DNA of 60,928 nt from Candidatus Margulisiibacteriota bacterium (GTDB taxonomy: Bacteria; Margulisbacteria; Termititenacia; CAZZFK01): contig JBHPMC010000001.1 in NCBI GenBank assembly GCA_042562495.1, positions 107,983 to 168,910 on the forward strand, read 5' to 3'. Shown here one piece after another: positions 45,664 through 58,844 of the stretch. Position numbers and translations under genes: made by a program. Position 1 is the stretch's first letter, and every line of letters begins with the position of its first letter. The notes under the pieces are model-generated. The model searched no databases, was not told where the DNA came from, and saw only the letters and a list, made by a program, of their open reading frames with translations.

Positions 45664-47976
45664 TTAAGTCTTTGTGGCTTGCCCGGAAGTTTCCTTTGTT
45701 GATTTTTCTTTATGTTTAGTGCTTTTGGCCTTTTTCGGAGTAAAGACCACGGTGTCTCCTTTGACAGAAGCCTGGACATGCTCGCCCTCTTTTATATCAC
45801 CAGTCAGCAATTTATCTGCCAAGGAATCTTCAAGTAGACGTTGTAAAGTCTGGCGTAGCGGACGTGCGCCTTGGTTCTCAATATAGCCTTTATCAACAAG
45901 GAAGTCTTTTACCGAATCAGAAATGGAAAGGGTAAGATTCTTTTCAGAAAGCCGCTTATTTAGATCGCGAAGCATGATCACGCAAATATCTTTCATGTTA
46001 TCCTTGGTTAAAGCTTTGAAAATTATTGTATCATCGATCCTGTTCAGGAATTCCGGAGTGAACTCTCTTTTTAATTCATTTAAGACTTTTTCTTTCATCT
46101 TATCGTAGGCGACTATATCTTTATTGGCATCTGCCACGAAACCAAAGCCCGCTTCTTTTTCGATCAGCTTGGAGCCCACATTGGAGGTCATGATCACCAC
46201 TGTATTCTTAAAATTAACCTTGCGGCCAGTTGAATCGGTGAGGCGACCATCCTCTAATATTTGCAAAAGAAGATTTATAACTTCCGGGCTGGCTTTTTCG
46301 ATCTCATCGAACAGGACTATGCTATAGGGCTTGCGACGCACAGGTTCTGTAAGCTGACCGCCTTCATCATATCCTACATAACCAGGCGGAGAACCGACCA
46401 AGCGAGAGGTAGTATGTTTTTCAGTATATTCTGACATATCAATACGTACGATATTATTCTCATCTCCAAATAGAAATTCAGCCAGAGCTTTTGCTAATTC
46501 TGTTTTCCCAACGCCAGAAGGCCCTAAAAAGATAAAAGAACCGATCGGCCGCTTTGGATCACGCAGCCCGGCCTTAGCCCTTTTAATAGCACGGGCCAGG
46601 GCTTTGATGGCATCTTCTTGGCCGACGACGCGCTTTTGCAGGGTTTCTTCAATTTGGATCAACCGCTGGGTTTCTGATTGTGAAAGCTGAGTGATAGGGA
46701 CGCCAGTCCAAGAAGCTACAATTTCTGCTATATCTTCTTCGGTAACTTCTTTTTTCTTGCCTTGTAAAATCACTCGAGAGGCTGCTTCATCCATTAGATC
46801 TACAGCCTTATCCGGCAATTGACGATCAGAAATATAGCGATTAGATAAATTTGTAGCCGCTTCCAGAGCATTATCACTGATCTTTACATCGTGGTACTGT
46901 TCATAACGTTGACGTATGCCCATCAAGATCTTTACGGTTTCTTCAAGAGATGGAGGATCGACCATAACACTTTGAAAGCGGCGTTCTAAAGCAGCATCAC
47001 CTTCGATGTGTTTGCGATATTCATTTAAAGTAGTAGCTCCGATACATTGTAATTCTCCACGAGCCAGCGCAGGTTTGAACATGTTGGCCACATCCAAACT
47101 TCCTTCGGTAGAACCAGTCCCGATGATAGTATGTAATTCATCAATAAAGAGAACGACATCCTTATTCTTTTTGATCTCCTCCATTACCTTTTTCACACGT
47201 TCTTCGAATTCTCCTCTATATTTAGTACCAGCGACCAATAAGCCGAGATCCAGATTGACCAATCTCTTATTTTGAAGCTTTTTCGGTACATCTTTTTTTA
47301 TGATATGTTGGGCCAGGGCTTCCACGATTGCAGTTTTGCCCACGCCGGCCTCTCCGGTCAATACAGGATTATTTTTTGTACGCCGGCTGAGGATCTGGAT
47401 GATCCTTTCGAGCTCTTTACTCCGGCCGATGACCGGATCTAATTTGTCTTCGGATGCTAACCAGGTCAGATCACGGCCGAATTCGTTCAATAAAGGAGTA
47501 TTGGCCGAAGGGAAAGAATCTTTGGCGGAAGCCACTTTTTTACCTAAGGATCTTAATAAGATATCCCGGGCTTTTGAGGAGTTTACTTTCAAGTTGCTCA
47601 AGATCTTAGCTGCCACACCTTCTTGTTCGCGCAAAAGAGCCAAAAAAAGATGTTCAACATTCACATAGCTGTGGCCCAATTGACGGGCTTCATCCCAAGC
47701 CAAACTAAGTACATGTTTTACTTGAGATGTAAAAGGGATGTTTTCTAAACGGATCGATTTTTTGTTGTATTCAACAGTATCTTCAATCGCTTTGCGGATC
47801 TCTTCCGGAGAGATGCCCAATTCATCCATGACTGCAAAGACAACATTATCCTTGCGTACGGATAATATACCCAGCAAAATATGTTCCGTACCGACAAAAT
47901 CATTGCCCATACGCTTTGCTTCATCTTGAGCATACATAATTGCCTGTATAGCCTTTTCAGTAAACCTTGAGAACAT
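45664..47976 (-). CDS. clpC: ATP-dependent Clp protease ATPase ClpC-type, lacking the middle (UVR) domain
   Basis: Double Clp-N, GEAGVGKT and GPSGVGKT Walker A motifs, GFGF ClpP loop; next to radA. Confidence 0.92.
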
Positions 47977-48007
47977 GTAGCCCCCTTTATATTATTTTAG
48001 TAATGAT

Positions 48008-48036
48008 AGATTAGCTTAGTTTGAAAACCGAGTCAA
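48008..48036 (-). promoter_or_regulatory. sigma70 promoter of clpC
   Basis: TTGACT-17nt-TAATCT. Confidence 0.6.
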
Positions 48037-48046
48037 GGTTAATGGC

Positions 48047-48376
48047 TTAATAGTCGGGAAAAACGCCCTTTCTGCGCATTTTTTTCTTTTCGGAGCGCAT
48101 TCTTTTTTCGCGAAGGACCTTTTCTTTAATTGCAGTTGATTTTTTAGTAGGAACTCTTTTTTTCTTTTTCTTGAATTTTTGTTTTAACTTTTCCTGTAAT
48201 TTAATGAGCGCACGTTTTTTATTCTGATATTGGTAGGAATATCTGGTCTCGGTCACAACAATACCTGTTGGCAGATGGGTAATGCGCACAGCGGTCTCGG
48301 TCTTGTTCTTACGCTGACCGCCAGGCCCTGAGCTTTTAAAAGCTTCGATCTCAAGGTCATTTTTTCTTATGAACAT
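48047..48376 (-). CDS. peptidyl-tRNA hydrolase, release-factor-like (ArfB-type); start revised to ATG 48376
   Basis: [24 protein letters not shown], basic C-terminal tail; GGGGAGG RBS. Confidence 0.85.
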
Positions 48377-48408
48377 AATAGATTTCCTCCCCTTGATTAT
48401 AATATATT

Positions 48409-48439
48409 CTGACATAAAGGTTAAAATCTGTTAAAATCT
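48409..48439 (+). promoter_or_regulatory. promoter of the MerR-DegV gene with a 10-bp tandem repeat
   Basis: CTGACA-17nt-TAAAAT (TGn); GTTAAAATCT twice at 48420-48439. Confidence 0.55.
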
Positions 48440-48476
48440 TTTTGCTTTTAAATTCATCTTAACGAGGCTTTAAATA

Positions 48477-49589
48477 GTGCGTACTGGCAAAAGATATATT
48501 AAAGTTCAAAACCGCCGCAAAGACCTATTCAAGATCAATCAAGTGGCAGAAATGTTAAATACAACATCGCGTACTATCCGTTATTACGAACAAATAGAGC
48601 TTTTACCCCCTGTAAAAAGAACAAAAGGGCGGATGAGGCTATACACGCATAGTGATGTGGAGTTGATTAAAGAGATCAAAGATCTGCAAGAAAAAGGATT
48701 GTCCTTGGAGGAGATCAAGGTTGAAATGAATAAATTTCAACAAACAATATTAATGAATCGTGATGCCAATAAAATAAAGATCGTAGTTGATAGTTCTGCA
48801 TCTTTGCCTTTCGATCTGGCCAGGCAAAATGGTATAGAGATAATCCCTATGCACATAAAATTAGGGCAAGAAGATCTGCTGGATGGCTTAGAGATCACTC
48901 CTGAACAATTAAAACAAAGAGTTGAGGAAGGCAGATTGGAGCCGATTTCAGCTCCGCCCACAGAAGAAGAATTTATTACAACTTACACGAGGCTTTATGA
49001 AGCTGGAGCGGAGAAGATCATTTCCATACATCTTTCAGAAAAGATCAGCGATACGGTGAAAATAGCCAGGAAAGCAGCTTCCTATATTAAAGATTTCGAA
49101 GTACAAGTGGTCGATGCCGGGACAATGGCCGGGGGAGCAGCACTTTTGGCTTTTGCTTCAGTAGCGAACGTTGCCAATAAAAAGGGATTAAAAGATATTC
49201 TCTCAGAACTTGAGGAAATGAAAAAGAAACGCTCCGAAGCAGTGGTCTTAAATACTGTTGAAAAAATACTTGGCCAGGAAAAGGAAAATGCTCTTTTAAA
49301 GATATTGACCGACTTTAAGCCTGTACTAGAAATGAGATCAGGGAAATTAAGCTTACGCACAAGGGTAAAAACTTTGGAAGAAGCAGAGGCGCAATTAGTT
49401 CTTTTTTGTCAGGAGCAAAAAGAGCTTTCGCATATCATTGTTCTAAATAGCAATATGCCTAAAGCAGCAGAAAGATTATTGGTCCACCTGGATAAAGCTT
49501 TTCCGGAAGCAAAAAGTGTAATATTTCCCTATAGTTCTGTGCTGGCTGCGAATTTATCCCAGGAATTGCTGGGAGTAGCCATATATTAG
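48477..49589 (+). CDS. MerR-family HTH fused to a DegV/FakB-like fatty-acid-binding domain
   Basis: FKINQVAEMLNTTSRTIRYYEQIELL...RLYT...GLSLEEIK (MerR), then IKIVVDSSASLP, ISIHLSEKISDT, VVDAG, KPVL (DegV). Confidence 0.85.
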   Translation: MRTGKRYIKVQNRRKDLFKINQVAEMLNTTSRTIRYYEQIELLPPVKRTKGRMRLYTHSDVELIKEIKDLQEKGLSLEEIKVEMNKFQQTILMNRDANKIKIVVDSSASLPFDLARQNGIEIIPMHIKLGQEDLLDGLEITPEQLKQRVEEGRLEPISAPPTEEEFITTYTRLYEAGAEKIISIHLSEKISDTVKIARKAASYIKDFEVQVVDAGTMAGGAALLAFASVANVANKKGLKDILSELEEMKKKRSEAVVLNTVEKILGQEKENALLKILTDFKPVLEMRSGKLSLRTRVKTLEEAEAQLVLFCQEQKELSHIIVLNSNMPKAAERLLVHLDKAFPEAKSVIFPYSSVLAANLSQELLGVAIY

Positions 49590-49612
49590 AATCATGTCTA
49601 TTTCCTGTTCCA

Positions 49613-49642
49613 TTGACAATGTTTTAGCCCCCTCCGTATAAT
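49613..49642 (+). promoter_or_regulatory. consensus sigma70 promoter of the yceD-rpmF-fab operon
   Basis: TTGACA-18nt-TATAAT. Confidence 0.8.
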
Positions 49643-49733
49643 AGGAGCCCTTTTTGTCGGGAAAGTCCGCTAAAAAGCCTATTTAGCTAGGTTTTAAGTG
49701 TGCATTTTGACAAAAGGAAGGAGATTTTGAACC

Positions 49734-50246
49734 TTGTTAATTGCAGATGTTTCGCAGCTGCTAGATCATGTAGGTGATACCCAGCAGATAGAAATACCCT
49801 ATGACCTACAACTCGCTGAGGATGATTACAAAATTATTTCACCAGTCGAGCTTAGCCTAAACTTGATCAGTACCGGGAAATCGATATTAGTTCAAGGTGT
49901 GGTGAAGGGGAATTTAGAAGCAACTTGTGGACGCTGTTTAAAATCTTTTCAACTCCCGTTCAATATAGATATTGAAGAGGAGTATAAACGCACAGAAGAT
50001 ATTATGTCGGTCACCGCAAAAGATAAAGAGCTTGGCGAAGATGATTTTATCTTTTCTATTGATAGTGAAGGCCGGATAGATCTAGGTGAGGCAGTGCGGC
50101 AGAACGTTGTTGTTAATCTGCCTTTAAAGTTTGTATGTAAAAAAGATTGCCAGGGTGTCATTAAGGCAACAAAGCCAAAGCAGAAAGAAATGGGGGAGGC
50201 AGATCCCCGCTTGGCTAAATTAAAAGAATTAAAAGAAAGGAAGTAG
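49734..50246 (+). CDS. yceD: DUF177/YceD 23S rRNA accumulation protein
   Basis: CGRCL, IDL...VRQ, CKKDCQG, DPRLAKLKEL; precedes rpmF. Confidence 0.92.
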   Translation: MLIADVSQLLDHVGDTQQIEIPYDLQLAEDDYKIISPVELSLNLISTGKSILVQGVVKGNLEATCGRCLKSFQLPFNIDIEEEYKRTEDIMSVTAKDKELGEDDFIFSIDSEGRIDLGEAVRQNVVVNLPLKFVCKKDCQGVIKATKPKQKEMGEADPRLAKLKELKERK

Positions 50247-50252
50247 TTATTT

Positions 50253-50495
50253 ATGGCAATGCCTAAAAAAAGAAGAAGTAACCGCAAAACAGGGAGTCAT
50301 CGTGCTGCCGCTTGGCGTATAACCCAATCGACCCAATCTAAGAAATGTCCCAACTGTGGGGTCGCGATGCTTTCGCATAAAGTATGCGGAAATTGTGGTC
50401 ATTACAAAGGAAGAAAGGTAATGGTTACTCGTTCAGAAAAACATGAAGCACGCAAAGTTCGTCGACGTAAAGAAAAAGAAAATCAGGGGCGCTAA
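50253..50495 (+). CDS. rpmF: 50S ribosomal protein L32 (zinc-ribbon type)
   Basis: [14 protein letters not shown]...[12 protein letters not shown]. Confidence 0.96.
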
Positions 50496-50548
50496 TGTTC
50501 CTGGAGACAGTAAGAGGTCAGCATAAAGATGCAGGAGGATATTAAAGA

Positions 50549-51556
50549 ATGAGGATCGCAGTAGATGCTTTAGGGGGCGATTACGCTCCTCACGAAATAG
50601 TTAAGGGCGCTGTGCAGGCGTGTAAGGAAATGCCAGATTGTCAGATCATTTTATCCGGCGATGAAGCAAAGATAAAAAAAGAGCTGGCCCAATACCCTGT
50701 GCAAAAAAATATCTCGATCGTGCATGCTCCGGAAAATATAAGTATGGAGGAGTCTCCGCTGCAAGCAGTACGTCAAAAAAAGGATGCTTCGATCAATGTT
50801 GGCTTGAAGCTGGTAAAAGAAAAAAAAGCAGATGGATTTATTTCAGCAGGGAATACAGGCGCGGTCATGGCCGCTGCCTTATTGACCTTAGGCAGAATAG
50901 GCGGTATCGAACGACCGGCGATTGCGACAGTGTTCCCAACCAAGAAAGATAATGCTGTAGTGTTGGATATTGGTGCGAATTCAGATTGCCGGCCCAATCA
51001 GCTGGTCCAATTTGCACAAATGGGTAGCTTGTATGCGCAAAAAGTTCTTGATAAAGCAGATCCCACAGTCGGTTTGTTGAGTATTGGCGAAGAAGATGAA
51101 AAGGGCAATGAATTAACAGTTGCAACGAATGCTTTGCTGAAAACTGCCCCGGTAAATTTTACAGGAAATATCGAAGGTAAAGATATCTTTGATGGAGTTG
51201 CCGATGTTGTTGTTTGCGATGGTTTTGTTGGGAACGTTGTTTTAAAGATGGCCGAAGGCATGATGGCTACAGTCTTGACCATCATGAAGAGCTTTGTAAA
51301 AAAGAATATTTTTGCTTTTATTGGAGCAATATTAATGTTGCCGGTCTTTAAGAAATTCAAAAAGAAATTTGATTATAATGAATATGGCGGAGCGCCGTTA
51401 TTGGGTGTCGACGGCATTTGTGTTATCACTCACGGGCGTGCCAAAGCTAAAGCAATAAAGAACGCGATCAGAGCGGTACGTGTCGCAGCGGAACATAATT
51501 TACTTGAAGCTATGCATAAAATGGAAATTGTTGGGGTAAAAAATGCCACACAGTAA
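50549..51556 (+). CDS. plsX: phosphate acyltransferase
   Basis: IAVDALGGDYAP, SAGNTGA, DVVVCDGFVGN, YGGAPLLG. Confidence 0.97.
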   Translation: MRIAVDALGGDYAPHEIVKGAVQACKEMPDCQIILSGDEAKIKKELAQYPVQKNISIVHAPENISMEESPLQAVRQKKDASINVGLKLVKEKKADGFISAGNTGAVMAAALLTLGRIGGIERPAIATVFPTKKDNAVVLDIGANSDCRPNQLVQFAQMGSLYAQKVLDKADPTVGLLSIGEEDEKGNELTVATNALLKTAPVNFTGNIEGKDIFDGVADVVVCDGFVGNVVLKMAEGMMATVLTIMKSFVKKNIFAFIGAILMLPVFKKFKKKFDYNEYGGAPLLGVDGICVITHGRAKAKAIKNAIRAVRVAAEHNLLEAMHKMEIVGVKNATQ

Positions 51557-52636: not shown

Positions 52637-53809
52637 ATGGCCGAGATTCAATATGGATTAACTGAAGAACAGATAGAGATCAGAAATATGGTCCGGGAAT
52701 TCGCTGAGGAAAGAGTAAGGCCAGTCCGGGCTGAGCTAGATGAAAAAGAAGAATTTCCAACGGAAATACTTAAAGAATTAGGGAAGATGGACCTGATGGG
52801 TCTCTATATTCCTGAGGAATATGGCGGTTTTGGCGGTCACTCAATAGATTATTGTTTGGCTATCGAAGAATTGAGTCGAGCCTGTATCGGAGTTTCGGTA
52901 TCCTATGCAGCCAATGCCCTGGGAAGCTATGCGATCTTATTTGCCGGCACGGAAGAGCAGAAGAAAAAATATATGACACCTTTGGCAAGTGGTGAGAAAT
53001 TAGCTGCTTTTGGGCTTACTGAGGCTAATGCTGGCAGTGACGCTGGGGGGATCCAGACGACAGCAGTATTAAAAGGAGATAAATATATCCTCAATGGCAC
53101 CAAGCAATGGATCACCAACGGTGGCGAGGCCGATATTTACACGATCGTTGCTATGACCGACAAGAAAAAAGGTTCGCGCGGAGCATCGGCTATTATTGTA
53201 GAAAAAGGCATGAAAGGTTTTAGCTTTGGGAAAAAAGAAGATAAATTAGGTATCCGGGCTTCAGCAACCAGAGAATTAGTATTTGAAGATTGTGAAGTGC
53301 CTAAAGAAAATTTGTTGGGTAAAGAAGGCCAAGGATTTATTTTAGCAATGAAGACCCTGGATCAATCTCGCCCTGGTATTGGTGCACAAGGAGTTGGTTT
53401 AGCACAGGGGGCTTTGGACGAAGCCGTTACTTATGCTCGCCAGAGAGTTCAATTCGGCAAACCAATCATGGCGCAGCAAGCCGTACAACATATATTGGCC
53501 AATATGGCTACCAAGACAGAAGCTTCCAGAGCTTTGGTGTATGCGGCCTGTCGCACCATAGATGCAAAAGAAAAAAATGTTTCCAAGATATCGGCGATGT
53601 CAAAGCTTTTCGCAACAGATACAGCAATGGAAGTGGCCATTGATGCAGTGCAGATCCTAGGCGGATATGGCTATATGAGAGAATATCCGGTCGAGAAAAT
53701 GATGCGTGATGCCAAGATCTTGCAGATCTATGAAGGTACCAATCAGATCCAGCGTAATGTTATTGGCGCAGCGCTGATGAAAGAATATGCAGGCAAAACG
53801 AAAAAGTAA
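52637..53809 (+). CDS. acyl-CoA dehydrogenase (Bcd/CarC-like)
   Basis: AFGLTEANAGSDA, GTKQWITNG, KLGIRASAT, QILGGYGY, IYEGTNQIQR (catalytic Glu). Confidence 0.95.
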   Translation: MAEIQYGLTEEQIEIRNMVREFAEERVRPVRAELDEKEEFPTEILKELGKMDLMGLYIPEEYGGFGGHSIDYCLAIEELSRACIGVSVSYAANALGSYAILFAGTEEQKKKYMTPLASGEKLAAFGLTEANAGSDAGGIQTTAVLKGDKYILNGTKQWITNGGEADIYTIVAMTDKKKGSRGASAIIVEKGMKGFSFGKKEDKLGIRASATRELVFEDCEVPKENLLGKEGQGFILAMKTLDQSRPGIGAQGVGLAQGALDEAVTYARQRVQFGKPIMAQQAVQHILANMATKTEASRALVYAACRTIDAKEKNVSKISAMSKLFATDTAMEVAIDAVQILGGYGYMREYPVEKMMRDAKILQIYEGTNQIQRNVIGAALMKEYAGKTKK

Positions 53810-53821
53810 GGAGTCAGTTCA

Positions 53822-54607
53822 GTGCATGTCGTTGTTTGTATAAAGCAAGTTCCAGATACTAACGAGGTAAAGATAAATCCCGAGACAAATACACTTATTC
53901 GGGAAGGCGTGGCCAGCATTATCAATCCTTTTGATGAAAATGCTATTGAAGCTGCTTTGGTATTAAAAGATAAAAAGGGTGCAAAAGTAACAGTGGTCAG
54001 CATGGGTCCTCCTCAAGTGGAAACAGCACTTAAGGAATCTTTGGCCCGTGGCGTTGATGATGTGGTTTTGTTGAGCGATAGGGCTTTTGCCGGAGCGGAT
54101 ACTTTAGCTACATCGTATACATTGACCGAAGGTATTAAGACCTTGGAAAAAGCCGATCTGATCCTTTTTGGTAAACAAGCGATCGATGGAGATACCGCCC
54201 AAGTAGGTCCTGGAGTCGCCGAATTAATGGACCTGCCCTTGATAACATATGTCCGCAAGCTGGAAGTTGAAGGCGAAAAAGTAAAAGTAGAAAGAGTTTT
54301 TGAAGATGGCTATGAAAAGATGGAAGCGCCAACACCGTGTGTTCTTACTATTTTAAAAGAAATGAATACACCTCGTATGGCTTCCTTAAAAGGAAAAATG
54401 AAGGCTAAAAAAGCTCAGATAAAAGTTTTAAATGCAGAAGCGATAAAGGCAGATCCCGAGCAGATAGGTTTAAAAGGATCGCCGACTCAAGTAGTTAAGA
54501 TCTTTACTCCGCCTAAAAAGACAAGCGGTCTGAAGATCGATGGTACAGCACCTTTGGATGCTGCTAAAACAGTAGTTGCGAAACTTAAAGAACAGAAAAT
54601 AGTTTAG
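53822..54607 (+). CDS. etfB: electron transfer flavoprotein beta subunit (bifurcating-type)
   Basis: VCIKQVPDT, FAGADTLAT, GKQAIDGDTAQVGP, GSPTQV. Confidence 0.95.
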   Translation: MHVVVCIKQVPDTNEVKINPETNTLIREGVASIINPFDENAIEAALVLKDKKGAKVTVVSMGPPQVETALKESLARGVDDVVLLSDRAFAGADTLATSYTLTEGIKTLEKADLILFGKQAIDGDTAQVGPGVAELMDLPLITYVRKLEVEGEKVKVERVFEDGYEKMEAPTPCVLTILKEMNTPRMASLKGKMKAKKAQIKVLNAEAIKADPEQIGLKGSPTQVVKIFTPPKKTSGLKIDGTAPLDAAKTVVAKLKEQKIV

Positions 54608-54620
54608 GGAGTATAAAGGA

Positions 54621-55838
54621 ATGGACTTAGAGATATTTCAAGATAAATGTACCGGTTGCGGATTATGTATCCCGGCCTGTCCCTTTGGAGCTTTAACCTT
54701 AGAACTTAGGGACCAATTAAAGCTTCCTGAAAGCAAATTCAAGAAGATAGCCGTGGTCAATGAGGCCTGTACGCTTTGCGGAGCTTGTGTGCCCGTTTGT
54801 AAGTTCGATGCGATGAAATTAGAAAAGGAAGAAAAAAAAGCAGCAGTAAACCTAAAAGATTATAAAGGTATCTGGGTATTTGCCGAGCAAAGAGAGGGAG
54901 AGATACAGGATGTGGTTTTTGAGCTTTTATCAAAGGGCAGGGAATTGGCCGATAAATTAAAAGAAGAGCTTTGTGCCGTTTTGCTGGGTGATAAGATCAA
55001 AGATAAAGCTAAAATTTTGTTCGCCTATGGTGCTGATAAGGTATATCTGGTTGAAGATCCTGGTCTTGCAGAATACAACACAGATCCTTATACAGATGTT
55101 TTATCCGATCTGATCAATAAACATAAGCCAGAGATAGTTCTAACAGGAGCTACCAGTATCGGGCGTGCTCTTATTCCAAGAGTAGCCGTTCGAGTAAAGA
55201 CAGGCTTGACCGCGGATTGTACCGGCTTGGATATTGATAATAAAGAAAAGATCATACTACAGACACGTCCGGCATTTGGTGGGAATATTATGGCCACTAT
55301 TGTTTGTCCAAACCATCGTCCGCAAATGTCTACTGTGCGACATAAGGTTTTCAAAAAAGTTATACCAGATGATTCACGAACGGGGCAGATCATTGAAGAA
55401 AAGGCGAGCATTAAACATTCCCGAGCAAAGATAATCGAAGTTTTACACGAAATGAAGAATCAAGTTAATTTAGCTGAAGCGGAGATCATTGTTTCCGGTG
55501 GTCGTGGTTTGGGCGGGCCGGAGAATTTTAAACTTATCGAAGAATTGGCCACTGAGCTGGGAGGCGCAGTAGGCGCTTCTCGTTCGGCAGTAGATGCCGG
55601 CTGGATCCCGGCCTACCACCAAGTTGGACAAACAGGGAAGACAGTTTGTCCAAAGTTATATATAGCTTGTGGGATCTCAGGTGCGATCCAACATTTAGCC
55701 GGAATGAGCTCTTCAGATACTATAGTAGCTATTAATAAAGATTCGGATGCTCCTATATTTAATGTTGCTGATTATGGAATAGTAGGGGATCTTTTTGAAG
55801 TTGTACCAGCGATGGTTAAGTCTTTAAAGGAAGGTTAA
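54621..55838 (+). CDS. etfA: electron transfer flavoprotein alpha subunit with N-terminal 2x[4Fe-4S] domain (CarE/LctC-like)
   Basis: [12 protein letters not shown] and [11 protein letters not shown]; [31 protein letters not shown]. Confidence 0.95.
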
Positions 55839-57830: not shown

Positions 57831-57862
57831 ACCGGGGATGGGCAAATGCTTGTCCCCGGTTT
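57831..57862 (+). terminator. stem-loop after acpP (weak terminator or 3' stabiliser)
   Basis: ACCGGGGATGGGC-AAAT-GCTTGTCCCCGGT followed by only a short U-run. Confidence 0.6.
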
Positions 57863-57878
57863 AGAACAAGGAAAGAGA

Positions 57879-58844
57879 ATGGAAATGAAGTTACCTGAAT
57901 TAAAGATCGGCAAATTCACAGCGAAATATCCCATTATCCAAGGGGGTATGTCGGTGCGTATTTCTCGAGCGCCTTTGGCAGCAGCAGTGGCTAATGCCGG
58001 AGGTATTGGAGTGATCGGCGGTTCAGGTATCGATGTCAACGAGATCGCTGAGGAAGTTCGTCAGGCCAAGGCTATGACCAAGCCTGGGGGAGTAATCGGT
58101 ATAAATATAATGTTCGCTATTACCAAATTCTTTGAGCTGGTTCATGCTTCGATCGATGCCGGAGTGGATATGATCTTTACCGGAGCAGGTTTTTCCAGAG
58201 ATGTTTTTAAGATCGGTAAAGAGAAAAATGTGCCTATTGTTTCTATTGTTTCTTCAGCAAAATTCGGCAGATTAGCCGAGAAACTGGGAGCAGCTGCTAT
58301 TGTTGTAGAAGGTGCTGAGGCCGGAGGGCATTTAGGCACAGATCGTTCTATAAAAGATATATTTCCAGAAGTTCGTGAAGTTGTTTCAAAGGTGCCCTTG
58401 ATCGCCGCAGGAGGGATCATGGATGGTTATGAGATAGCAGGATTTCTAAAAGAGTATAAAGCAGATGCTGTTCAAATGGCGACACGTTTTGTAGTAGCCG
58501 AAGAATGTTCTGCCTCTCAGGAATTTAAAGACATGTATTTAAATGCAGAAAAAGAACAAGTGATGAACGTTAAAAGTCCGGTAGGCATGACCGGGCGAGC
58601 TTTGCGTAATCCTTTTATGAATGCCGTAGAGCAAGGGAAATATCCGGCCGTGCGTTGCCCTTATCAGTGTTTGAAAAGTTGCAATAGAGTTTATTGTATT
58701 ATCGAAGCTTTGATCAATTCCCAGGAAGGGCGAGTTGATAAAGGCCTGGTCTTTACTGGAGTTTGGCGCTTGAAAGGTAAAAAGGTCCAACCTACCAAAG
58801 AGATCATGGAAGAGCTAATAAAAGAAGCTGAATCTGTCGAATAA
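57879..58844 (+). CDS. FabK/nitronate-monooxygenase family flavoprotein with FabX-type 4-Cys motif; start revised to ATG 57879
   Basis: LKIGKFTAKYPIIQGGM, VEGAEAGGHLG, AAGGI, VQMATRF, SPVGMTGRA, CPYQCLKSCNRVYCI. Confidence 0.88.
   Translation: MEMKLPELKIGKFTAKYPIIQGGMSVRISRAPLAAAVANAGGIGVIGGSGIDVNEIAEEVRQAKAMTKPGGVIGINIMFAITKFFELVHASIDAGVDMIFTGAGFSRDVFKIGKEKNVPIVSIVSSAKFGRLAEKLGAAAIVVEGAEAGGHLGTDRSIKDIFPEVREVVSKVPLIAAGGIMDGYEIAGFLKEYKADAVQMATRFVVAEECSASQEFKDMYLNAEKEQVMNVKSPVGMTGRALRNPFMNAVEQGKYPAVRCPYQCLKSCNRVYCIIEALINSQEGRVDKGLVFTGVWRLKGKKVQPTKEIMEELIKEAESVE

Follow-up and report, generated by a model that had tools for sequence, protein, structure and literature searches.

The locus and the fusion protein

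The window, by which we mean the whole stretch of DNA analysed, is 60,928 nucleotides (nt) long and comes from a Candidatus Margulisiibacteriota bacterium (assembly GCA_042562495.1, contig JBHPMC010000001.1, positions 107,983 to 168,910 of the forward strand). It contains a gene for a protein of 370 amino acids (aa) in which a DNA-binding head of the MerR type is joined to a DegV domain. DegV and FakB proteins have a known role in carrying fatty acids for a kinase. The fused protein has the DegV fold and has lost the residues that couple FakB to its kinase, it belongs to a conserved family with the same architecture, and the kinase FakA is absent from the clade. The reading we favour, with a confidence slightly above even, is that the protein is a one-component transcription factor with a DegV (FakB-type) lipid-binding sensor, which no longer works with a fatty-acid kinase. 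The gene and its parts are as follows.

48477..49589, + strand: MerR-DegV fusion gene, 370 aa (open reading frame, Pfam, NCBIfam, start comparison)
48477..48527, + strand: basic N-terminal arm, residues 1-17; residues 2-10 are invariant and the alignment to GlnR/TnrA begins at residue 12-13
48528..48728, + strand: MerR-type winged helix-turn-helix (HTH), residues 18-84 (Pfam MerR_1, AlphaFold2 model)
48705..48767, + strand: single helix, residues 77-97, connecting the head to the first DegV strand where MerR proteins would typically have a long coiled coil (model)
48771..49583, + strand: DegV domain (EDD fold, fatty-acid-binding type), residues 99-369 (Pfam, Foldseek)
49257..49322, + strand: remodelled segment, formerly the GGR/alpha8 'portal', residues 261-282; predicted homodimer interface (alignments, dimer model)

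The reading frame begins with a GTG codon. This start is considered sound because four relatives with 60-75% identity begin there, their initial methionine aligning with residue 1, and because residues 2-10 (RTGKRYIKV) show no variation among the four closest relatives. The head matches Pfam MerR_1 over residues 18-84 (E 1e-20) and scores well above the cut-offs for the MerR winged HTH (PF13411, 73.8 bits, cut-off 21.6; PF00376, 47.5 bits, cut-off 28.2). The remainder, residues 99-369, matches Pfam DegV (PF02645, E 5e-42, 144.5 bits, cut-off 27) over profile positions 1-277 of 280, and belongs to the NCBIfam DegV family (TIGR00762, 152 bits, cut-off 99.7). An earlier reading of the DNA, made from the letters alone (the sequence-only reading), had described a MerR HTH and a DegV fold in one gene, which these matches bear out. 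The protein falls short of narrower families: it scores 86 bits against a cut-off of 350 for the FakB1 equivalog (NF038249) and 47.5 bits against 140 for TnrA, its C-terminus being the DegV domain, and the match to NCBIfam CarH is weak (21 bits, cut-off 400).

Predicted structure and dimer

An AlphaFold2 model was built on a 70-row alignment, with a mean predicted local distance difference test score (pLDDT) of 93.2 and a predicted template modelling score (pTM) of 0.79. The modelled head consists of helices 20-26 and 31-39, a strand at 54-56 which is presumably the wing, and helix 58-72. The long antiparallel coiled coil that follows the HTH in MerR proteins is missing from the model; only helix 77-97 follows, which is joined directly to the first DegV strand at residue 100. 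All 40 fused proteins have a short linker, 17-25 residues from K81 to D105. Among solved structures, those closest in sequence to residues 12-89 are GlnR and TnrA (E 5e-12 to 5e-9), with MtaN also among the best.

Foldseek matched the model to more than 30 fatty-acid-loaded DegV/FakB chains (E 1e-17 to 3e-24, target-normalised TM-score 0.78-0.88), and the model and these matches together identify the two-domain DegV/EDD fold. The solved DegV entries with a ligand among the matches listed all hold a plain fatty acid, according to their titles.

A homodimer model scored 0.51, the best of three controls scoring 0.05, and passes the mark set for a dimer by the modelling tool. Of proteins solved as same-chain pairs 20 of 30 reach this mark, and of those solved as single chains 1 of 23; these counts hold roughly, since the homodimer model used a custom alignment. 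Three runs share 100% of contacts and the partner pLDDT is at least 83. The predicted interface comprises residues 261-282, 291-296 and 360 and lies wholly inside the DegV domain. In the model the interface segment is the exact replacement of the helix and loop that carry Arg173 in FakB.

Residues of the putative ligand site

The register of the DegV motifs was set by alignment to solved DegV/FakB chains and 10 stand-alone DegV proteins, and residues were counted in 40 fused proteins and the same 10 stand-alone ones. Excerpts of two papers on FakB1 (PMC8892158, PMC9136124) describe a hydrogen-bond network of Ser171, His270, Thr62, the ligand carboxylate and Ser95; they state that Arg173 is common to all FakBs and required for the kinase reaction, and that Arg205 serves FakA and membrane binding. 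The helix and loop bearing Arg173 form a dynamic portal for ligand exchange in the excerpted account of PMC8892158, and that of PMC9136124 has the acyl-phosphate product neutralised by Arg173. The corresponding positions are given below in FakB1 numbering.

Thr62: Ser158 in the window protein; Thr in 25/40 fused and 8/10 stand-alone proteins
Ser95: Ser191 in the window protein; Ser in 33/40 fused and 9/10 stand-alone proteins
Ser171/Arg173 (GGR loop): absent from the window protein; kept in 2/40 fused and 10/10 stand-alone proteins
His270: Asn359 in the window protein; His in 8, Tyr in 19, Phe in 6 and Asn in 2 of 40 fused proteins; His in 9/10 stand-alone proteins
Arg205: Lys298 in the window protein; Lys in 25 and Arg in 2 of 40 fused proteins; Arg in 9/10 stand-alone proteins

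The window protein thus retains S158 and S191 of the carboxylate network, the Ser171 loop is gone together with Arg173, and His270 is replaced by N359. The sequence-only reading was right that HLSEKISDT is kept (residues 185-193, the Ser95 equivalent being S191), that the GGR motif is absent and that the C-terminal histidine has become asparagine. It had also noted a change of TSQP to ISAP; the motif has indeed changed but the register was wrong, the correct correspondence being TTSQP to ISAPP. The equivalent of Thr62 is therefore Ser158 and not Ile157, a conservative change, and Thr or Ser occupies this column in 26 of the 40 fused proteins. When 39 fused sequences are compared with 31 stand-alone DegV sequences, 12 columns reach a conservation of 90% or more, including D105, S106, S183, H185 and P282.

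These residues bear on whether the domain binds a ligand at all. The protein might be a ligand-independent regulator, in which a decayed DegV fold is kept as a mere dimerisation scaffold for the MerR heads. An interface confined to the DegV domain would suit such a role, as would the degeneracy of several head-group residues in this protein and some family members, and in some lineages, for example at locus L083 and in the 325-342-aa frames of family f16, the C-terminal domain no longer scores as DegV in Pfam. However, conservation at the core DegV signature columns is 90% or more in fused and free forms alike, the Ser191 and Ser158 positions are kept as counted above, and the model has a pLDDT of 93 and TM-scores of 0.83-0.88 to ligand-bound structures. 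We regard a pure scaffold as improbable.

Distribution of the family and of the kinase FakA

The closest relatives carry the source names Candidatus Margulisbacteria or Margulisiibacteriota, and 146 genomes of this phylum were surveyed. DegV is present in 60 of them. In 50 genomes it lies inside a frame of 341-432 aa, and in one more the fusion is split over two contig ends. The 341-432-aa frames also match the MerR part of the query, and the 39 that were extracted and aligned all have a MerR head. Stand-alone DegV occurs in two genomes of the phylum, G112, where it adjoins a Dak2 gene, and G001. Seven genomes carry only a second, longer class of DegV protein, of 504-594 aa.

Dak2 (PF02734), the kinase domain of FakA, is found in 2 of the 146 genomes and is absent from 144. 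It was not found in the window genome, which is 67% complete, or in G071, a relative from the same family that is 100% complete. The same search matched 8 of 14 reference genomes used as a control. A FakA partner of the kind that a FakB would have was not found in either genome. A FakB-like carrier that still acts in fatty-acid activation or trafficking, with the MerR head as an accessory, would fit the full-length DegV fold and the basic residue that many fused proteins keep at the Arg205 column (Lys in 25/40), but it would have to do without Dak2 in nearly every genome, the complete relative included, and without the Arg173 loop, and its FakB1 score is 86 bits where 350 are needed. This was already disfavoured and we consider it very improbable. 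The sequence-only reading had proposed a kinase carrier turned into a ligand sensor; the loss of the carrier role stands on these same figures (Arg173 loop in 2/40, Dak2 in 2/146, FakB1 86/350), while sensing keeps the strength given at the outset.

Beyond the phylum, an HMMER search of 1.84 billion representatives found fused forms among the best 150 matches, whose taxonomy was not given. In a pattern-seeded scan of 185,579 species genomes the full-length relatives all came from Margulisbacteria-type records, with one exception, an Actinomycetota-labelled record with a divergent C-terminal part which does not score as DegV; the scan relied on two peptide patterns and could miss independent MerR-DegV fusions elsewhere. 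Scans of genome-contig and metagenome-contig collections with the single window protein gave no match, and with an alignment of close relatives as the query one metagenome fragment of 789 nt matched. No publication on the MerR-DegV architecture was found in full-text literature searches.

Erysipelotrichaceae MerR proteins whose matches reach residue 200 were rejected as family members, being MerR-methyltransferase proteins. One of them (L102:2998-4167) has a MerR head and a class I S-adenosylmethionine-dependent methyltransferase domain, and is another enzyme-type MerR fusion from an unrelated family.

Two further groups of proteins were seen in the course of the survey. The protein at L083:2971-3981 and the 325-342-aa frames of family f16 keep the MerR head and an aminotransferase neighbour, their C-terminal domain lying below Pfam scoring for DegV; this suggests decay or rapid divergence of the sensor domain in some members of the family. 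The 504-594-aa class is found in about 20 genomes of the phylum (for example L142:1587-3242 on the minus strand and L143:805-2568 on the plus strand). It has about 330 N-terminal residues with no Pfam or NCBIfam match, followed by a DegV domain missing the first ~60 profile positions, and its N-terminus does not align to the FakA/Dak2 part of single-chain FakA-DegV proteins.

Gene neighbourhoods

Downstream of the fusion gene, on the same strand, lie yceD (49734), rpmF, plsX, fabH, genes for an acyl-CoA dehydrogenase and for the beta and alpha subunits of an electron transfer flavoprotein (ETF), fabD, fabG, acpP, an NMO/FabK-like gene and fabF. The minus-strand neighbours are an RF-1-domain (ArfB-like) gene, a ClpC-like gene and radA. 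The sequence-only reading placed the end of the fusion gene 23 nt before the -35 box of the lipid operon, and this is so: the stop codon ends at 49589 and the promoter begins at 49613. No terminator-like site was found between the fusion gene and yceD. The start of the operon is:

49734..51556, + strand: yceD, rpmF and plsX, first genes of the downstream lipid operon (Pfam)

Synteny was compared over about 7 kb either side of 40 orthologues, giving 41 loci with the window. The genes yceD-rpmF-plsX directly follow the regulator in 3 of the 41, namely the window (family f1), G070 (f37) and G028 (f22). Genes for fatty-acid synthesis (fab) are found within 7 kb in 6 loci, which additionally include G071, where they are 4.7 kb away, and G029 and G035, where the fab operon is upstream. 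PlsX is encoded in 137 of the 146 genomes and, where both could be located, is mostly on a contig other than the regulator's.

Two other contexts are conserved. In the largest, with 16 loci, the genes after the regulator encode an AsnC/Lrp regulator, a class I/II aminotransferase and CvpA, and those upstream often include rpsB, tsf and genes for an HD hydrolase and thioredoxin. In the second, with 9 loci, a TPR protein and an unknown 491-aa protein come next, the gaps being -52 to +8 nt, and TonB_C comes after them; 7 of these loci also have ExbB/ExbD, and in 7 the gene immediately upstream is LptA-like. In both contexts the distance to the next gene usually ranges from an overlap to a few tens of nt, with 470-490 nt at two loci, and since the gaps are usually so short the AsnC and TPR contexts are taken to be operons.

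The position of the window gene raises the question of whether it is a dedicated regulator of the yceD-rpmF-plsX-fab operon, acting at the promoter at 49613-49642 and sensing fatty acid, acyl-phosphate or acyl-acyl carrier protein (acyl-ACP) as feedback on synthesis. The 23-nt distance without a terminator-like site is in its favour. Direct adjacency occurs in three taxonomic families, and fab genes within 7 kb at 6 of 41 loci exceed what is expected by chance for ~14 kb in genomes of 1-3 Mb, related genomes not being independent. In a quick tree, with the careful search unfinished and many forks open, the fab-adjacent members from the three families fall within the portion closest to the stand-alone DegV proteins. 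The adjacency to fab is rare and is either ancestral or recurrent, and some weight is therefore left for a functional link, though it is not the rule. Against a dedicated fab regulator, 35 of the 41 loci have no fab gene within 7 kb and PlsX is mostly on another contig; in addition the loss of Arg173 speaks against an acyl-phosphate ligand, as far as the excerpted account in PMC9136124 goes. The sequence-only reading had named homologues unlinked to lipid genes as a finding that would refute it. This is true of most of the family, though not of every member.

The second context suggests a different regulon. The protein might sense an envelope lipid, the ligand being a lysophospholipid or a hydroxy-fatty acid/lipopolysaccharide precursor and the regulon being outer-membrane biogenesis, with fab as one member. 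The nine loci with TPR, 491-aa and TonB_C genes and their ExbB/ExbD and LptA-like neighbours point this way, and the altered head-group residues (His270 to Tyr in 19/40, Arg173 lost) would suit a different head group. This context accounts for only about a quarter of the loci, however, the largest group of 16 has no evident lipid role, and the solved DegV entries listed with a ligand all hold a plain fatty acid. We think such a sensor unlikely, and slightly more so than a dedicated fab regulator.

The surroundings of the window gene have features of their own. The RF-1-domain protein, an ArfB-like peptidyl-tRNA hydrolase of 122 aa (48047-48415, minus strand), is encoded divergently, 61 nt from the start of the fusion gene. 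In the fab operon, the acyl-CoA dehydrogenase and both ETF subunits are inserted between fabH and fabD (52637-55838), ETF-alpha has an N-terminal 2x[4Fe-4S] ferredoxin domain, and the NMO/FabK-like gene lies further down (57846-58844). The dehydrogenase/ETF insertion recurs in G070 (L025), with a dehydrogenase that is 72% identical, and may provide fatty-acid synthesis with an unusual step of enoyl reduction or electron bifurcation.

Promoters and candidate operators

Four features of the intergenic regions were annotated from the sequence.

49613..49642, + strand: consensus sigma-70 promoter of the yceD-rpmF-plsX-fab operon, TTGACA-18-TATAAT, 12/12 positions; spacer without a dyad; conserved in G071
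48409..48437, + strand: promoter-like site of the fusion gene, CTGACA-17-TAAAAT, with TG before the -10 box
48420..48439, + strand: perfect tandem direct repeat, 2 x GTTAAAATCT, overlapping the gene's own -10 region
49650..49687, + strand: pair of imperfect inverted repeats that overlap each other, just downstream of the -10 box in the presumed yceD-rpmF leader

In classical MerR-type activation the promoter has a spacer of 19-20 nt with a dyad operator within it. Neither promoter here is of this kind, the fab spacer being 18 nt without a dyad and the gene's own spacer 17 nt with a direct repeat. G071 and a metagenome fragment (L061) share the extended -10 block AAAATCTGTTA[C/A]AAT that belongs to the gene's own promoter. 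The GTTAAAATCT repeat also overlaps a divergent promoter-like site of the RF-1-domain gene, and relatives have a single copy. It is not enriched in the window, with 7 matches at up to one mismatch where 9.6 are expected. The inverted repeats at 49650-49687 could be an operator or RNA hairpins, the latter as alternatives to each other, and Rfam gave no credible family in 47900-50700, a region which includes them.

A k-mer search of 40 upstream regions returned only AT-rich words close to the shuffle maxima, and these were rejected. A further candidate, TAACGTAA in one subgroup, proved to be mostly the end of the upstream gene together with a -35-like TTAACG. ACGTAA/TTACGT is found upstream of 11 of 39 orthologues and in 23 of 476 control upstream regions (Fisher p 9e-6), a significance that is overstated because some genomes are related and some controls include coding sequence. 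The motif is missing from the upstream region of the window gene itself. In the window genome 3 of 35 occurrences of the 8-mer are intergenic, intergenic DNA making up 9.4%, so there is no enrichment. It occurs in 2 of 20 fab-operon upstream regions, about background; the yceD start was not found in 14 of these 20, and some of the 200-nt stretches thus include coding sequence. The motif is a lead only. The TnrA-type site, which we take to be TGTNAN7TNACA, was found with up to one mismatch in 6 of 39 targets and 33 of 473 controls, a weak difference.

The promoter evidence adds to the case against a dedicated fab regulator. The operon has a 12/12 promoter with a spacer shorter than those of MerR targets, G071 keeps this promoter although its regulator is 4.7 kb distant, and the sole recurrent upstream motif, ACGTAA, is as rare before fab operons as just described. 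Such a role is unlikely in our view. The sequence-only reading had made the protein a regulator of the adjacent fab operon, a claim that is not supported, given the rarity of the arrangement (directly adjacent in 3/41, fab within 7 kb in 6/41) and the lack of a dyad in the promoter. Regulation of this operon in the window genome is possible; the family and the promoter sequence give no support to it. The window alone would mislead about the regulon, because adjacency to fab is an exception in the MerR-DegV family.

Proposed mechanism

We return to the reading of a one-component factor with a lipid-binding DegV sensor. For this protein we infer ligand binding, the dimer, the coupling between domains and all target genes, and propose that they would act in four steps. 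The DegV tunnel would bind a free fatty acid or similar acyl lipid, Ser158 and Ser191 holding the head group. The Arg173/portal segment of FakB would have been rebuilt as a helix pair (residues 262-277) that forms the homodimer interface. As the former portal would now be this interface, we propose that ligand occupancy would in consequence alter dimer formation or geometry. The rigid helix 77-97 would then relay the change to the two GlnR/TnrA-like MerR winged helices and alter DNA binding. This predicts that dimerisation and DNA binding of the soluble 370-aa protein depend on ligand. The nearest candidate targets in the window genome are the gene's own promoter and the adjoining yceD-plsX-fab operon.

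Several observations weigh against this reading. The homodimer model has no contact between the MerR heads, none being reported in residues 1-99. The interface loop varies from 17 to 30 residues across the family, so this mode of dimerisation may not hold throughout. In 15 of 40 fused proteins a residue other than Thr stands at the Thr62 column, and carboxylate binding may therefore be weakened in part of the family; the window protein itself differs from its own family at this column (Ser) and at the His270 column (Asn). Gene neighbourhoods are heterogeneous, and a convincing operator was found neither in the window promoters nor in the upstream regions of orthologues.

If the reading is correct, a DegV domain wired to a DNA-binding head in a kinase-free clade would amount to a new route by which bacteria detect free fatty acids or related lipids. 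Margulisbacteria are a sister group of Cyanobacteria, and the family would give a first handle on lipid or envelope regulation in these uncultivated organisms. A broader proposal is that the fusions form an undescribed, phylum-wide class of one-component regulators, with a FakB-type fold devoid of kinase-coupling residues and a membrane-docking portal loop turned into a ligand-gated dimer interface, through which free fatty acids would set the transcription of fab and Lpt/Tol-like envelope genes in hosts without the known types of regulator of fatty-acid synthesis. We put this forward tentatively and think it rather doubtful in its entirety.

Comparison with known systems

The FakB and DegV proteins (S. 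aureus FakB1 and FakB2, T. thermophilus and T. maritima DegV; PDB 5UTO, 4X9X, 2DT8, 1MGP) share with the fusion the two-lobed EDD fold (TM-score 0.83-0.88), the DS[TS] and SxH signatures and the hydroxyl equivalents of Thr62 and Ser95. The fusion differs in its additional N-terminal DNA-binding domain, in the loss of the GGR/Arg173 loop and the replacement of His270, in the lack of a FakA partner in its clade and in the use of the former portal segment as a predicted dimer interface.

GlnR and TnrA are small MerR regulators of Bacillus (PDB 7TEA, 7TEC, 4R4E, 4R24) which, like the fusion, have an N-terminal arm before the HTH and no long coiled coil. In both, a C-terminal element governs dimerisation and binding to DNA. 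In the fusion the glutamine-synthetase-binding tail of these proteins is replaced by a DegV domain of 270 aa, and a TnrA-type site is not clearly enriched upstream of the fusion genes.

Proteins of the CarH/LitR type combine a MerR-like HTH with a B12-binding sensor, so that a head free of a coiled coil sits on a globular module which controls oligomerisation. They are an architectural analogue of the fusion, with an unrelated sensor fold and ligand.

The known regulators of fatty-acid synthesis are FapR, FabT, FadR, FabR, DesT and FasR. As factors that respond to lipid intermediates they are a possible functional analogue of the fusion, which in the window heads a fab operon. They belong to other DNA-binding families with other sensor folds, and the linkage of the fusion to fab is not conserved. 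Their ligands are thioesters of coenzyme A or ACP, whereas that of a DegV domain is a free carboxylate.

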